Source: Candidatus Gastranaerophilales bacterium (GTDB lineage Bacteria > Cyanobacteriota > Vampirovibrionia > Gastranaerophilales > Gastranaerophilaceae). Taken from it: a DNA stretch of 64,000 nucleotides. The notes under the pieces are model-generated. The model saw nothing but the letters and a program-made list of their open reading frames with translations. It made no database searches and was not told the origin of the DNA. Position 1 is the stretch's first letter, and each line of letters starts with the position of its first letter. The stretch spans positions 8,601 through 72,600 of the forward strand of contig CALUPU010000007.1 in assembly GCA_944322725.1 (NCBI GenBank), written 5' to 3'. Shown piece by piece: positions 3,224-62,980 of this stretch. The translations under genes were made by a program, and so were the position numbers.

Positions 3224-3299
3224 TGGTGGGCGATACTGGACTCGAACCAGCGACCCCCACAATGTCAATGTGATGCGCTACCAACTGCGCCAACCGCCC
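3224..3299 (-). tRNA. tRNA-Val (anticodon GAC), CCA encoded
   Basis: The reverse complement folds as a cloverleaf: acceptor GGGCGGT/ATCGCCC, D-arm GCGC-AGTTGGTA-GCGC, anticodon arm TCACA-TTGACAT-TGTGG, T-arm GCTGG-TTCGAGT-CCAGT, then A-CCA. Confidence 0.93.
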
Positions 3300-3313
3300 A
3301 TTTATTTAATTAG

Positions 3314-3400
3314 TCAAAGCCATAGCTTTGAGATGTGCTACCACCCTCTCCTCGAACGTGACATTTAGTCACCTTCTCGTCGGCAGAGTGCCAACCGCTC
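3314..3400 (-). repeat. truncated tRNA-Val-like element (5' part plus hairpin module plus stem-loop)
   Basis: Minus strand reads GAGCGGTTGGC (10/11 identical to tRNA-Val positions 1-11), a 47-nt insert (3343-3389), GGTAGCACATC (D-arm 3' side), then the TCAAAGC-TATG-GCTTTGA hairpin. No T-arm or 3' acceptor strand. Confidence 0.7.
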
Positions 3401-4049: not shown

Positions 4050-4223
4050 AAATTATTTAAGAATGGATGAAAATCACACGACATTCAAGAAATCTTTGAT
4101 TTCGTAGAATGACGGGTGCTGGCGATTTGCTTTAGCAAATCGAACACGTAAACCGTAATACTAGCAAACTTGTTTGCGTAGTAATACGAGGTGAGAGTCT
4201 ATCTTTGGCTTTTAATGTACGAA

Positions 4224-4298: not shown

Positions 4299-4480
4299 GT
4301 AGAGTTTTTTGTTTTTGCGTCCCTGCCTTCTCGGCAGGTAGTAAATCTAACTTCGAGTGCTCTGCACTCTTGGCATTGAGTTACTTCCGCGTAGAGTTTT
4401 TTGTTTTTGCGTCCCTGCCTTCTCGGCAGGTAGTAAATCTAACTTCGAGTGCTCTGCACTCTTGGCATTGAGTTACTTTT
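4282..4480 (-). repeat. 92-bp perfect tandem repeat (about 2.2 units) that includes the first 17 nt of tRNA-Gly
   Basis: Unit 4299-4390 is identical to 4391-4476, after which the second unit diverges. Each unit ends (minus-strand: begins) with GCGGAAGTAACTCAATG, which is tRNA-Gly positions 1-17. Units also contain GAGTGC-AGA-GCACTC and CCTGCC-GAGAA-GGCAGG hairpins. Confidence 0.9.
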
Positions 4481-4496
4481 ACAAAAATTATAAGTA

Positions 4497-4570
4497 TCGG
4501 GATGACACGATTCGAACGTGCGACCCCTTCGTCCCAAGCGAAGTGCGCTACCAAGCTGCGCCACATCCCG
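4497..4570 (-). tRNA. tRNA-Pro (anticodon TGG), no encoded CCA
   Basis: The reverse complement is CGGGATGTGGCGCAGCTTGGTAGCGCACTTCGCTTGGGACGAAGGGGTCGCACGTTCGAATCGTGTCATCCCGA. Anticodon loop CTTGGGA, standard cloverleaf. Confidence 0.93.
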
Positions 4571-4669
4571 ACCCTTTTGTGGAATCCGACGCGCACTTCG
4601 TGCTACCTCTCGTTCGAAATGACATTTAGTCATTTCTCACTCGGCAGAGTCAAGCTGCGCCACATCCCG
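4571..4669 (-). repeat. truncated tRNA-Pro-like element, proximal copy
   Basis: Minus strand reads CGGGATGTGGCGCAGCTTG (19/19 match to tRNA-Pro positions 1-19), a 44-nt hairpin module (4607-4650), then GTAGCAC followed by divergent sequence. No T-arm or 3' acceptor strand. Confidence 0.75.
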
Positions 4670-4711
4670 ATGTATATAGGAACGCAGCTTGGTAAATTTC
4701 TATACGGCACA

Positions 4712-4794
4712 CAGAAGCATTGCTTCTGACTCAGCCTGCCTCCACTCCGGCTTGACATTTAGTCAACCCTGCGCGGAGTCCTTGCCACATCCCG
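4712..4794 (-). repeat. truncated tRNA-Pro-like element, distal copy
   Basis: Minus strand reads CGGGATGTGGC (11/11 match to tRNA-Pro positions 1-11), a 41-nt hairpin module (4739-4779), then the CAGAAGC-AAT-GCTTCTG hairpin. It shares the 5' flank TATACAT with the proximal copy. Confidence 0.7.
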
Positions 4795-4852
4795 ATGTAT
4801 AACTATCAAATTACTATTATCTTTTCAAAGTACTATTAATTTCGTAACTATG

Positions 4853-4881
4853 AGTTTATCAACAACAATTGTCACAGTCAA
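4853..4881 (-). promoter_or_regulatory. candidate sigma-70 promoter for the tRNA cluster
   Basis: Minus strand has TTGACT, 17 nt of spacer, then TAAACT, upstream of the distal Pro-like element. Sequence match only. Confidence 0.35.
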
Positions 4882-34485: not shown

Positions 34486-34722
34486 ATGAACATATCTTTA
34501 ACACCGACATTAGAAAAATTTGTGCAGGATAAAGTTGCTTCCGGATTGTATAATTCAGTAAGCGAAGTGATAAGAGAAGCTTTAAGACTTATGGCATCAA
34601 AAGATGTAATTTCACAAGATAGAATTGCACAGTTAAACAAAGATATTGAAGAAGGCTGGAATGACAAGACTATATATACTGGTCAAACTGCAATGGAACA
34701 ATTAATGCAGAAATATGAATAA
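34486..34722 (+). CDS. parD: type II antitoxin, ParD family (ribbon-helix-helix)
   Basis: MNISLTPTLEKFVQDKVASGLYNSVSEVIREALRLM matches the ParD N-terminal pattern. GAGG RBS. Overlaps the toxin start by 8 nt. Confidence 0.8.
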   Translation: MNISLTPTLEKFVQDKVASGLYNSVSEVIREALRLMASKDVISQDRIAQLNKDIEEGWNDKTIYTGQTAMEQLMQKYE

Positions 34723-35017
34723 TTTTGAATTGGAAATAACAAGTAAGGCTTATTCAGATATAGAGGTAATTCTGGATTATATTTCTTCTTATAATAAAGT
34801 AGCTGCACATAAAATGATAAAATATTTATTCAAATCATTTGATTTTTTATGTGCACATCCAAATTTAGGGAAAAATAGACCCGATTTTACATATTTGGAT
34901 GTAAAATTTTATGTTGTTAAGAAACATTATTTAATAGTCTATAGATTAATTGATGACAAAAAACTGAGAATTTTAAGGGTTTTGTCTGCTTATCAAGATA
35001 TATGTTCTCAATTTTAG
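34715..35017 (+). CDS. parE: type II toxin, ParE/RelE family
   Basis: 100 aa with ..AYSDIEVILDYIS..HPNLGKNRPDF..YLIVYRLIDDKKLRILRVL pattern. Coupled to parD. Confidence 0.8.
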   Translation: MNNFELEITSKAYSDIEVILDYISSYNKVAAHKMIKYLFKSFDFLCAHPNLGKNRPDFTYLDVKFYVVKKHYLIVYRLIDDKKLRILRVLSAYQDICSQF

Positions 35018-35066
35018 ATTGAATATTTCTGTTTGAAAATAATCAGCCAGTTTATTGAGCCGTTAG
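35016..35066 (-). pseudogene. 3'-terminal fragment of an XRE-family HTH gene
   Basis: About 50 nt match 36079-36131 (the 3' end of CDS 36057..36278) at roughly 88 percent identity. It would encode RLNKLADYFQTEIFNL (compare RLDKLADYFQTETFNL) and is preceded by an in-frame stop. Confidence 0.6.
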
Positions 35067-35124
35067 GTAATCTACCGAGACATCGACTGCAATATAGAGG
35101 CGGTTGTGCGCATTAAAAATTAGC

Positions 35125-35421
35125 TTATGCAACCTGAACGGTGTAGCCTAATTCTTTTATAATTTTTAATGCAGTAGAAAGCTGCGGCTGTTGTTCTCCT
35201 TTAAAGATTGCATATAGATTGCTTCTTGATATACCTGTCTTTTTTGATATACCGGAAATAGAATCTTTGGCACGAACCGCATATTCCAGTGCTTTTAAAA
35301 AAGCGTTCAGGTCATTGTCTTGCAAAAATTCTTCAAAGCCTATGTTTATCCATTCTTTTATATCTTTGTCAGTTTTTAAGTCATTTAAAATATATTCGTT
35401 AAAGGATTTTGATTTATTCAT
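35125..35421 (-). CDS. higA: HTH antitoxin of the addiction-module antidote type (HigA-like)
   Basis: ..NAFLKALEYAVRAKDSISGISKKTGISRSNLYAIF..PQLSTALKIIKELGY. Start set at the ATG preceded by GGAGG. Overlaps the toxin stop by 8 nt. Confidence 0.78.
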   Translation of the reverse strand: MNKSKSFNEYILNDLKTDKDIKEWINIGFEEFLQDNDLNAFLKALEYAVRAKDSISGISKKTGISRSNLYAIFKGEQQPQLSTALKIIKELGYTVQVA

Positions 35422-35740
35422 TTTTAAGCCTCCAAAGTTCAAGATATTCTTTTGCTTTTTCTATATCTTTAGATTGTCTGGATTTGTCTCCGCCATTGAT
35501 TAATAGAACGATTGTACTATTTTTTTCTGTATAATATACCCTGTAACCTTTGCCAAAGGCGAAGCGTAATTCTGAAATTTCATTTGATAATTTTTTGCAA
35601 TCACCAAAATTGCCATCTTCTATACGCAATATTTTTTGGTTTATACGTTTTCTTGTAACGCTGTCTAATGAGTTTAACCATTCAATCACAGGTGCTTTGC
35701 CATTGGGAAGAATAAGAAATTCAATCTTGTAATGATTCAT
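35414..35740 (-). CDS. higB: addiction-module killer protein, RelE/HigB-like toxin
   Basis: APVIEWLNSLD..RKRINQKILRIEDGNFGDCKKL..ISELRFAFGKGYRVYY..IVLLINGGDKSRQSKDIEKAKEY pattern. Toxin-first gene order. Confidence 0.8.
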   Translation of the reverse strand: MNHYKIEFLILPNGKAPVIEWLNSLDSVTRKRINQKILRIEDGNFGDCKKLSNEISELRFAFGKGYRVYYTEKNSTIVLLINGGDKSRQSKDIEKAKEYLELWRLKNE

Positions 35741-36618: not shown

Positions 36619-36990
36619 ATGAAAAGACTAATTCTATCACTTATGCTGCTTTGCACATTAACTCAATGCGCCCACGCTATTGGTATTAACAAATCAGCCT
36701 TCTATGACAAAGGCTTGCTTTTTTCGGGTACAACGTTTCCTCAATCTACTGCCAATGACATCAACAATGAGAATACACAAAAACAGCAAACTCTTAAAAC
36801 AGGCATGTCTGCCACAACAAACTTTCTCGGCTTAATTGAAGTAGGCAACGCTTCAATCGACTCTGCAGCAAAACGGGCTAATATTACCAAAATTCACTAC
36901 GTCGATACAAATGTCAGCAAGGTGTATATCCCCCTGCTGTTTATTCCAATCTATGCAAAAACCATAAGAACAACAGTTTACGGAGAATAA
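36619..36990 (+). CDS. TRL-like family lipoprotein/secreted protein
   Basis: Signal peptide MKRLILSLMLLCTLTQCAHA. C-terminal FLGLIEVGNASIDSAAKRANITKIHYVD..TTVYGE matches the TRL-like pattern (..GDAsI..AAk.ggI.kI..vD...YGE). GGAG RBS. Confidence 0.7.
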   Translation: MKRLILSLMLLCTLTQCAHAIGINKSAFYDKGLLFSGTTFPQSTANDINNENTQKQQTLKTGMSATTNFLGLIEVGNASIDSAAKRANITKIHYVDTNVSKVYIPLLFIPIYAKTIRTTVYGE

Positions 36991-37004
36991 AAAGGAGTAT
37001 CTCA

Positions 37005-37325
37005 ATGAAAAAATTTATTACAACAATGGCACTGCTTGCACTCACTGCCCTGTTTAGTCAAAGCATGGCAAACGCTACGGCACTTTTCTATACAGATGCA
37101 ACCTATCCTGTAACGGCAACAGGTGTAAAAGTGGAAAACCTGCATAATCTGAAAAAAGGCACTGCCTCATCCAGTAATATTCTGTACCTTATAGAAACAG
37201 GCGACGCCGGAATTGAACAGGCTGCCAAAAACGGCAATATTAAAAAAATAACATACATAGATGTTAACGAAAAAACTGTTTTTATCTTCTGGCGAAAAAT
37301 TACTGTAACGGTTTATGGCGAATAA
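37005..37325 (+). CDS. TRL-like family secreted protein
   Basis: Signal peptide followed by ALFYTDATYPVTAT..SSSNILYLIETGDAGIEQAAKNGNIKKITYIDVN..VTVYGE. Confidence 0.75.
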   Translation: MKKFITTMALLALTALFSQSMANATALFYTDATYPVTATGVKVENLHNLKKGTASSSNILYLIETGDAGIEQAAKNGNIKKITYIDVNEKTVFIFWRKITVTVYGE

Positions 37326-62580: not shown

Positions 62581-62676
62581 ATTTAAGTTTTCCTCTTTAC
62601 AAAAAAAATTTATCATGTATGATAATAGTTGTCGAAAGACCAACACCACAGGTGTGTATATAACACAAAAAATTGT

Positions 62677-62749
62677 GGGGGTTTAGCTCAGCTGGTAGAG
62701 CACCTGCTTTGCACGCAGGGGGTCAGGAGTTCGAATCTCCTAACCTCCA
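62677..62749 (+). tRNA. tRNA-Ala (anticodon TGC), no encoded CCA
   Basis: GGGGGTTTAGCTCAGCTGGTAGAGCACCTGCTTTGCACGCAGGGGGTCAGGAGTTCGAATCTCCTAACCTCCA, with the G3:U70 identity pair, anticodon loop CTTTGCA and a standard cloverleaf. Confidence 0.94.
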
Positions 62750-62754
62750 AAAAT

Positions 62755-62786
62755 AAAGGGACATCATCAGATGTCCCTTTATTTTT
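62755..62786 (+). terminator. rho-independent terminator after tRNA-Ala
   Basis: AAAGGGACATC-atca-GATGTCCCTTT, then ATTTTT. Confidence 0.8.
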
Positions 62787-62936
62787 GGCTTGTTTTGGTA
62801 ATGAGAACCTTCCAATGTACGAAGTACATTTAAAAGGAGTTGCGCGAGTGAGCTGAGGCTGGAGTGCTTTTGTTGAAAGGGCTGTAAGCCCTGTAAACAA
62901 AACACGGAATTGCCGTTAAACGCGAACGAGCAAGAC

Positions 62937-62954
62937 CGAATCTCCTAACCTCCA
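62937..62954 (+). repeat. direct repeat of the tRNA-Ala 3' end (18 nt)
   Basis: CGAATCTCCTAACCTCCA is identical to 62732-62749 (T-loop, T-stem 3' side, acceptor 3' strand and discriminator). Confidence 0.85.
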
Positions 62955-62980
62955 TCATTCAAAAAAAAGCTTATTTCTTT

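Follow-up and report, generated by a model that had tools for sequence, protein, structure and literature searches.

A short hairpin module lodged in truncated tRNA gene copies of Melainabacteria, a candidate REP/BIME-like palindromic DNA element

Organization of the locus

The window analyzed here, 64,000 nucleotides (nt) of a contig from a Candidatus Gastranaerophilales bacterium, carries two tRNA transcription units on its minus strand. The first consists of a promoter-like site, the distal unit (125 nt), the proximal unit (99 nt), tRNA-Pro(UGG), two 92-nt Gly units, tRNA-Gly(UCC) and tRNA-Cys, in that order, and the second of a 101-nt unit followed by tRNA-Val(GAC). At the start of every unit, the first 11-20 nt of the next tRNA are repeated. 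The two units upstream of tRNA-Pro and the one upstream of tRNA-Val contain a short hairpin module, which is the subject of this report. An earlier note on the letters of this DNA had quoted three minus-strand sequences for it, all of which are present exactly. The copies, with their scores from a covariance model (R1) that was trained on copies from other genomes and then run over the window, are as follows:

3343-3389, minus strand: module A, Val copy, of the tandem G.A stem type (CGAG/CGAG); 67.4 bits.
4604-4650, minus strand: module A, Pro-proximal copy, ACUCUGCCGA GUGAGAAA UGAC UAAAU GUCA UUUCGAAC GAGAGG UA; 66.4 bits, E 2e-13.
4737-4779, minus strand: type-2 module, Pro-distal copy, ACUCC G CGCAGGGUUGAC UAAAU GUCAAGCCGGAG U GGAGG; 34.3 bits.

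The E values of the three matches span 1e-13 to 8e-6, and the model found no other convincing score in the window, which gives a density of three copies in 64 kb. The same sites are picked out by simpler patterns. The 13-mer TGACTAAATGTCA has three sites, each with 0 mismatches, and none further at ≤2 mismatches (the chance expectation for a single exact 13-mer in the window is about 0.002), and ACTCTGCCGA-N(18-45)-GAGAGG has 2 matches, compared with 0.00 in 100 shuffles. The Pro-distal copy lacks the GCCGA bulge and has type-2 relatives at loci L016, L047, L053, L070, L083 and L111 and at Caenarcanum loci. The Gly-linked repeat had been noted to share CTGCCGAGAAGG with the module; the string is indeed there, but as a remnant of the tRNA-Gly anticodon arm (TACCTGCC...GGCAGG) that R1 leaves unscored, and the repeat is not a module copy.

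The modules are set between pieces of the neighboring tRNA genes:

4853-4881, minus strand: promoter-like site TTGACT-17-TAAACT, 5' of the distal unit and conserved in L088, L131 and L137.
4780-4795, minus strand: tRNA-Pro 5' end in a diverged copy, TCGGGATGTGGCAAGG, ahead of the distal module (repeat family D5, 70%).
4671-4736, minus strand: remainder of the distal unit, with a second hairpin and an antisense D-arm stretch.
4651-4670, minus strand: copy of tRNA-Pro positions -1 to 18, TCGGGATGTGGCGCAGCTTG, matching the gene at 20/20 positions and abutting the 5' side of the proximal module (family D5).
4572-4603, minus strand: remainder of the proximal unit, comprising GCAC (a D-stem remnant), CGAAGTGCGC and a degenerate T-arm-like stretch, and reaching the tRNA-Pro 5' end.
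4496-4571, minus strand: intact tRNA-Pro(UGG), found by ARAGORN and Rfam; source gene of both Pro units.
3390-3400, minus strand: copy of tRNA-Val positions 1-11, GAGCGGTTGGC, with a duplicated AT-rich leader upstream (repeat family D12).
3300-3342, minus strand: remainder of the Val unit, comprising GGTAGCACATC (tRNA-Val 18-30), the hairpin UCAAAGC-UAUG-GCUUUGA and a copy of the leader.
3224-3299, minus strand: intact tRNA-Val(GAC), found by ARAGORN and Rfam.

The position of the promoter-like site upstream of the distal unit suggests that the Pro units would belong to the pre-tRNA leader. In the proximal unit, 44 nt (4607-4650) exactly separate G18 from G19 of the tRNA-Pro 5'-end copy, with GTAGC following, as the earlier note had described. 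Judged by the family, the module boundary is 4604/4606-4650, because the consensus end GAGAGG(UA) overlaps the D-loop GGUA. Target-site duplications are absent: GCAGCTTG, module and GTAGC join cleanly in Pro, Val and Thr units of several genomes. Both remainders of the Pro units hold antisense stretches, since CGAAGTGCGC is antisense to tRNA-Pro GCGCACTTCG and TACCAAGCTGCG (4683-4694) in the distal unit is the perfect antisense of the tRNA-Pro D-arm. The second hairpin of the distal unit, CAGAAGC-AAU-GCUUCUG (4712-4728, inverted repeat I23), is part of another recurrent motif, GUCAGAAGC..GCUUCUGYGUGC.GUAUA, and the distal-unit remainder is conserved in L088 and in L025, L047, L078 and L109. 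Whole units fold much better than shuffled sequences, with z scores of -4 to -4.8.

An AT-rich leader, TTGA(C/A)AATT(A/T)AATA, stands directly 5' of most units and of most intact tRNAs (3300-3318 in the window; also L028, L091 and L115). This leader motif holds UGAC...UAAAU, the same letters as the module tip.

The module family

The family was collected by scanning one genome per prokaryotic species with the pattern TGACTAAATGTCA-N10-GAGG, which retrieved at least 119 loci. At least 142 copies were found in this public-genome scan, distributed over at least 115 loci that are nearly all from Melainabacteria/Gastranaerophilales. Among the matches listed, all labelled records belong to Melainabacteria (Gastranaerophilales, Vampirovibrio, Caenarcanum, Limenecus), apart from 4 chance-like matches and 3 apparently mis-binned contigs, and the 142 copies reduce to 87 distinct 47-mers of the main type. 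The consensus is ACUCUGCCGA-N8-UGAC-UAAAU-GUCA-N8-GAGAGG; the element measures 45-49 nt and its copies are all intergenic. Thirty-one positions are invariant and conserved order-wide, the conservation of the 13-mer and of GAGG being partly circular because the search pattern fixed those positions, so that the true family is broader. As judged from these records, the family appears to be short, non-coding and lineage-specific, and has so far been seen only in Melainabacteria/Vampirovibrionia, relatives of cyanobacteria that do not photosynthesize.

The N8 stem positions were left free by the search pattern and carry the evidence for pairing. Changes on both sides occur in 7 of the 12 stem pairs, and compensatory cells number 173 compared with 56 ± 6 in shuffles (0/500; 87 copies); the compensatory events are fewer than the cells, because many of the "independent" sequences are subfamily copies. 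When the stem registers are slid, the paired fraction falls from 90% to 37-54%. Sixty-five haplotypes of the N8/N8 stems are present. Pair 18-32, adjacent to the tip, shows all four Watson-Crick types with zero mismatches, which extends the G-C, A-U and U-A covariation correctly noted in the three window copies. At pair 17-33, two thirds of the copies have G.G, and pairs 12-38 and 13-37 are either Watson-Crick or else tandem G.A/A.G. The outer CUCU/AGAG helix does not covary within the main type; it is CUCC/GGAG in type 2, to which the distal copy of the window belongs, and the change reported between the window copies is correct. The earlier proposal of a shared hairpin under pairing selection at the D-loop position of tRNA-like copies is thus supported, and is much stronger with 87 distinct copies than with three. 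Neither outcome that would have counted against it was observed, the covariation having statistical support and Rfam giving no match.

Mismatches within the stem are unevenly distributed, with 13 G.U against 3 A.C and 98 purine-purine against 2 pyrimidine-pyrimidine, whatever the context. This asymmetric spectrum indicates that one specific strand is the folding strand. The tip is less constant than the base. Copies retrieved by the conserved base alone bear the tips ACGAU-UAAGU-AUCGU, AGCC-AGUG-GCUG, AUGCC-AGU-GGCAU, AAGAC-UAAAU-GUCUU and CAAC-UAAAU-GUUG. The defining part is the hairpin base, ACUCUGCCGA...GAGAGG(UA), and UGAC-UAAAU-GUCA is its usual tip only. The description of TGAC-TAAAT-GTCA as an invariant hairpin holds for all window copies and for the commonest tip, but this hairpin does not define the family, as relatives bear other apical hairpins.

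Compared with a kink-turn (K-turn; C-stem, 3-nt bulge, tandem sheared G.A/A.G, NC-stem), the base gives a mixed picture. G9-A10 and G40-A41 could pair in tandem beside the variable stem; the bulge would then be 4 nt (UGCC) and not 3, C4-to-G variants (8/87) break the -1b/-1n pair, and type-2 copies are without the motif altogether.

Searches with Rfam 15, which includes hammerhead and other small ribozymes, rtT and T-box, returned only tRNAs at the gathering threshold in the window; at E up to 10 there was zero overlap with the window modules, and no module match in 18 further loci either. One match only was found in 2.9 million viral contigs and none in phage and plasmid records, BLAST gave no meaningful matches, and no description of the module was found in the literature on tRNA-linked repeats in Melainabacteria or cyanobacteria.

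Location of the copies

Among the matches listed, 71 of the 102 placeable copies (~70%) lie within sequence derived from a tRNA gene, with a tRNA gene ≤500 nt away. Fifty-eight of them are in sense orientation (class 1) and occupy the D-loop position of 5' or internal fragments upstream of the intact cognate gene, which follows 60-330 nt downstream. Their left flank runs from tRNA position 1 to 8, 11-12, 17-20 or 26, and the right flank resumes at about position 18-20 (34 for Ile). The tRNAs concerned are Val, four Leu isoacceptors, Thr, Met, a second Met(CAU) gene (with the 5' end CGCGGGAU), Ile, Lys and three Pro isoacceptors. The other 13 are antisense (class 2) and replace the T-loop, or once the anticodon loop, in a 3' fragment downstream of a Leu, Arg, Glu or Met gene, past its terminator. 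This polarity (58 sense, 13 antisense) has zero exceptions, and loci L060 and L087 carry both kinds, converging on one tRNA.

The host tRNA copies end after about positions 25-45 or begin at about 45, and are not called as tRNAs. A CCA end is present in partial copies only if the gene encodes CCA (L050, L104) and is absent in L060, L073, L094 and L112, which shows that the fragments derive from DNA and not from mature tRNA. Partial copies accompany 31 of the 61 tRNAs with complete flanks, in a sample biased to module-bearing loci, and 4 of the 5 tRNAs in the window. The preferred home of the module is shown to be a truncated, non-functional tRNA copy directly beside the intact gene.

The remaining ~30% of placeable copies have no tRNA nearby and are set among other small hairpin repeats. 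The orientation and signal tests relied on crude open reading frame (ORF) calls and consensus scans. For the 30 non-tRNA copies, these tests showed that neither promoters upstream (3 sense, 6 antisense) nor terminators downstream (2 and 2) are in excess in the sense of the module. Orientation relative to neighboring genes is random, a result judged uninformative, as stand-alone small RNA (sRNA) genes would also be expected to be random.

Several of these other repeats recur. A ~115-nt tandem repeat at L106 (830-1200) and L061 (3600-3900), TAGCACCCACC..., has hairpins that are G-rich and C-rich; module A is carried in the hairpin loop of one unit, the same loop being intact in the adjoining units. 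At L031 (2500-2600), L113, L013 and L082, module A or the type-2 form lies within another widespread repeat, GTCATTGCGAG...GAAGCAATCC.

Gain, loss and exchange among relatives

Related genomes differ in whether, and in what form, the module is present. At L131/L133, where PpiC is 70% identical, the ppiC-tRNA-Pro-Gly-Cys locus is empty; promoter and all three tRNAs are kept, with spacers of 28 (Pro-Gly) and 20 nt (Gly-Cys). L137 matches the window at 282 of 286 nt (98.6%) from the end of ppiC to ACTCTGCCGAG and then switches abruptly at the module base, past which it has a different module interior and a different unit tail (the counterpart of 4572-4603 is wholly different). At the orthologous ppiC-tRNA-Pro locus of L088, where PpiC is 56% identical, the layout is unchanged and much of the sequence is shared, and a G-to-A change at position 9 is seen in tRNA-Pro and in both units together. 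In L092 an orthologous array holds three tandem Val units with the same flanks and different module interiors. A host repeat is filled in L046/L114 and empty in L109, and identical N8/N8 haplotypes turn up in different genomes, at Leu, Val and Met loci as well as away from tRNAs. Given this loss, exchange and variation in copy number, the bacteria can do without the units, and the module acts like a cassette that can be exchanged.

Two further observations were made at the Pro locus. In L132, L135 and L136 (2910-4090), two minus-strand genes (210 and 191 amino acids, aa) are located between ppiC and the tRNA-Pro promoter, and the promoter and compact tRNA operon are otherwise unchanged. L001-L010, from the species of the window and with identical PpiC, are ten metagenome contigs that nearly all end 250-730 nt past ppiC, inside the units, which indicates that the repeats break short-read assemblies.

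Other inserts and neighboring genes

The module is not the only insert at these tRNA positions, which are also occupied by module B (in T-loops) and by the Gly-unit hairpin:

4299-4482, minus strand: two 100%-identical 92-nt Gly units, each with tRNA-Gly positions 1-17, GAGUGC-AGA-GCACUC as a hairpin where the D-loop would be, and an anticodon arm changed in its loop (repeat family D1).
62751-62955, plus strand: 3'-side counterpart, a partial copy of the tRNA-Ala 3' end located after the terminator of that gene (62676-62750) and reading GGAGTT, "module B" (~120 nt) and CGAATCTCCTAACCTCCA; the T-loop is interrupted.

In the Gly units, the loop of the anticodon arm is GAGAA instead of UUCCAA. 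One such unit is present in the same-species contig L003, compared with two in the window, and none in L131; the orthologue in L088 shows a compensatory U-A to A-U change. The Gly units are a parallel case with a different insert and not members of the module family. Copies of module B, which ends in ...ACGGAATTGCCGTTAAACGCGAACGAGCAAGAC, are also found downstream of Val, Leu, Ile and Arg tRNAs, again at the T-loop position (L011, L028, L066, L070, L112, L123).

The spacer between tRNA-Gly and tRNA-Cys (4050-4223, minus strand) is 174 nt long and contains three hairpins. The same spacer measures 20 nt in L131, and the longer version is probably another insertion of small structured repeats. A tyrosine recombinase of ~180 aa, comprising the catalytic domain only, is encoded 0.1-2 kb from module arrays at L073 (3458-4019), L124 (716-1258) and L036 (3442-3978). 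Elsewhere in the window (34715-35740 and 36619-37325) there are a ParE-family toxin gene, a Gp49/HigB-like gene and two adjoining TRL-like genes, all unrelated to the module.

Interpretation

The module is best explained as a non-autonomous palindromic DNA element mobilized by an enzyme encoded elsewhere, similar to repetitive extragenic palindromes (REPs) and bacterial interspersed mosaic elements (BIMEs), a reading that we give about an even chance of being correct. The element most likely spreads as small selfish DNA and not as a tRNA-linked functional RNA. A DNA repeat is favored by the antisense copies past terminators, by the non-tRNA copies that lack signals, and by the presence/absence and exchange polymorphism. 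Other small hairpin motifs adjoin the module in a mosaic habit.

The proposed scheme is as follows. The hairpin would form on one particular strand, as single-stranded nucleic acid, and its base would be recognized by the mobilizing enzyme, for which an HUH/Y1 transposase is a putative candidate by analogy with REPs and REP-associated tyrosine transposases (RAYTs). This enzyme would insert the element, without target duplication, at the loops that tRNA DNA exposes when it folds into a cloverleaf. Where the tRNA gene is single-copy, such an insertion would survive only within one member of a tandem duplicate, and the disrupted copy might then be trimmed until identity to the gene remains on the outer side of the module only. 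Recombination on the outer side would merely gain or lose units and be tolerated, whereas on the inner side it would leave the cell with a broken tRNA and no other copy, so that homology on that side would be selected away. Such a scheme could account for the arrays, for variation in copy number, for the concerted position-9 change in L088 and for the clean loss in L131. The units of the window would simply be carried in the pre-tRNA leader and taken off by normal 5' processing.

Several results weigh against this explanation. Neither a transposase nor any recurrent protein was found beside the copies when 751 ORFs from ~119 loci of up to 8 kb were compared all-against-all, and the window ORFs that were scanned included no RAYT-type transposase. 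The GTAG/CGTC tag is not constant: GTAG lies ≤10 nt 3' in 47 of 101 distinct copies and is absent in 54, and where it occurs near the module it is mostly the tRNA D-loop GGUAG. No orientation bias with respect to GC skew was detected (46 vs 51 loci), contrary to the lagging-strand prediction of IS200/IS605-type elements. The idea that the module is nested in host hairpins finds no general support in flank complementarity (mean z -0.3). The 31 order-wide invariant positions and the retention of the Pro leader at 56% PpiC identity fit a host function more than is usual for selfish repeats, and the strict polarity (58/13) has no demonstrated mechanistic cause.

The principal alternative, less probable but still to be entertained as a tentative reading, is a functional structured RNA: a hairpin that would bind a protein and might have a tandem G.A base of the K-turn kind, carried in pre-tRNA leaders and trailers. 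Its tRNA-like flanks would serve RNase P processing or co-regulation with the cognate tRNA, and the DNA dynamics would be secondary, through unequal crossing-over and gene conversion. Such an RNA would explain the strong covariation and a strand-specific structure with G.U, G.G and tandem G.A on the sense strand in all contexts, as well as the superior folding of whole units over shuffles (z -4 to -4.8). The class-1 majority sits between promoter and tRNA and is hence predicted to be transcribed in sense. The architecture and sequence of the Pro leader are kept between the window and L088 (PpiC 56%), and the tRNA-like segment co-evolves with the tRNA, as in the change of position 9 from G to A in both L088 units. 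However, the class-2 copies are antisense to the tRNA, past its terminator and without a visible promoter, and the non-tRNA copies have neither a promoter nor a terminator signature. A relative at 70% PpiC identity has the same promoter and tRNAs without any unit, the interior is exchanged wholesale in near-identical genomes and the apical hairpin is replaceable; nor is there an Rfam match or a general closing helix of the units. The "RNA structure" suggested in the earlier note is not established, in view of the antisense copies, the signal-less non-tRNA copies and the polymorphism.

It is very unlikely that the module is a programmable guide of RNA or DNA, a scaffold hairpin whose segments on either side match one strand of the cognate tRNA gene and form a bipartite guide comparable to H/ACA pockets or to the target-binding loop of IS110 bridge RNAs. 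An unlinked, lineage-specific enzyme would then recombine at, or act on, tRNA genes or tRNAs, and the inward polarity would be a mechanistic requirement and not a historical accident. In both classes, both flanks match one strand of the neighboring tRNA gene, with ~6 target nt opposite the hairpin base; the polarity is strict, and 5' of the module lies, in every case, a segment complementary to the 3' acceptor strand of the tRNA. No recurrent effector gene lies nearby, however, ~30% of placeable copies are without tRNA-derived flanks, and sense class-1 flanks are unable to pair contiguously with the tRNA itself. The flanks are more simply explained as remnants of duplicated genes, since duplicated leaders and terminators accompany them.

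Equally improbable are decayed attachment-site scars of tRNA-integrating elements, comparable to cis-mobilizable elements (CIMEs), in which an integrase or excisionase would bind the module as an arm-type site. Integration classically leaves partial 3' tRNA copies downstream of tRNAs, and a ~180-aa tyrosine recombinase lies ≤2 kb from module arrays at 3 loci. Yet this is 3 of ~119 loci, the window not among them, and most copies (58 of the 71 that are tRNA-embedded) sit in 5' or internal sense fragments; upstream 5' fragments are not an integration product. The module interrupts the tRNA fragment rather than abutting it, the units are just 90-125 bp long, and the matches were limited to a single one in 2.9 million viral contigs, with phage and plasmid records giving zero. 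Nor would a duplex binding site be expected to show stem covariation and purine-purine mismatches.

A palindromic operator in double-stranded DNA, TGAC-N5-GTCA, bound by a dimeric protein, which the earlier note had offered as its second option, can hardly be upheld, even though the 13-mer is unchanged across the window copies and most of the family: the search pattern required it, copies retrieved by the base alone bear other tips, exchange of the tip on a constant base counts against a duplex operator, and asymmetric conserved flanks, a covarying N8 stem and strand-specific G.G and G.A mismatches indicate a folded single strand.

Other candidates were rejected. A hammerhead-like core (CCGACGAG resembling CUGANGAG, with CGAA after the stem) has no Rfam match at E 10 and differs at key positions. 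Class-2 left flanks are complementary to the tRNA 3' end, and a primer-binding site for reverse transcription is out, as CCA is found only where it is gene-encoded. Lagging-strand insertion of the IS200/IS605 type, as stated, is contradicted by the missing GC-skew bias, by the lack of a constant 5' target tetranucleotide and by convergent copies around one tRNA. A rule that the module is always in the loop of a host hairpin holds for D and T arms and for L061, L098 and L106, but flank complementarity is not generally enriched. Clustering of the 751 ORFs gave no protein family common across contexts, and the gene within the inverted pair of L109 is dnaN. Independent sRNA genes are not supported, there being no excess of promoters or terminators in the sense of the module, nor is a phage or plasmid origin, given one viral-contig match and nothing meaningful by BLAST. 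A tRNA intron (group I or bulge-helix-bulge) does not apply to host copies that are incomplete and not called as tRNAs, and a CRISPR- or TIGR-like guide array is at odds with units that are identical within arrays, including their "spacer" part, and have no adjoining effector family.

Comparison with known systems

In published REP families, stems reach 12-13 bp and include unpaired GA, subfamilies are set apart by complementary changes in the stem, GT pairs are present, and copies occur nested in palindromes and in mosaic clusters (PMC3733652). Like REPs, BIMEs and REPINs, the module is a short, imperfect, extragenic repeated palindrome. It has a stem of ~12 bp with conserved internal mismatches, G-T pairs and subfamilies with complementary changes, conserved unpaired tags at the foot of the hairpin and no target-site duplication, and it shares the mosaics with other small motifs, the nesting in palindromes and the long vertical persistence combined with turnover. 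By contrast, its tags are ACUCUGCCGA and GAGAGG and not GTAG/CGTC, and because this defining tag fails the module is set outside the REP super-families. No association with a RAYT or other transposase was found in loci of up to 8 kb, the tip is exchangeable on a constant base, and the copy number is seemingly modest (3 in 64 kb). The location of ~70% of placeable copies in truncated tRNA copies, with strict polarity, is undescribed for REPs or for MITEs (miniature inverted-repeat transposable elements).

With MITEs, Correia/NEMIS, RUP and the Rickettsia palindromic elements, the module has in common that it is non-autonomous and structured, shows presence/absence polymorphism among relatives and inserts into other genetic elements (RNA genes too for the Rickettsia elements). 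It is far shorter (45-49 nt), produces no target-site duplication and resides in dead tRNA fragments, not in functional genes. To our knowledge, there is no related autonomous insertion sequence.

The 178-bp repeats linked to tyrT in Escherichia coli, with their rtT RNA, are tandem units beside a tRNA gene, each with a short piece of the tRNA 3' end, and are co-transcribed with it. As far as is known, these repeats involve 3'-end copies only, have no common hairpin cassette and are confined to a single locus in one lineage; Rfam, which includes the rtT family, yielded no match to the module. The module arrangement, unlike that of tyrT, affects many tRNA species order-wide and both sides of the gene. 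CIMEs and tandem accretion likewise produce direct repeats of a partial tRNA gene around short non-coding DNA, sometimes arrayed; the module differs in that 5'-side fragments are also involved, the cassette lies inside the fragment and is found away from tRNAs as well, and integrase linkage is lacking.

Significance

If the module is indeed a REP/BIME-like element, it would represent a previously undescribed family of palindromic repeats at the flanks of a large share of Melainabacteria tRNA genes. It would also offer a testable case of how an essential single-copy gene tolerates a parasite, with the truncated tandem copy as a safe harbor and recombination that is harmless on one side, and would explain why metagenome assemblies break at tRNA loci in these organisms. 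The signature captured by model R1 can be used to find the mobilizing enzyme through phylogenetic profiling. If the module acts instead as a structured RNA, it would constitute a clade-wide, uncatalogued motif tied to tRNA operons, whose binding partner would be worth finding.

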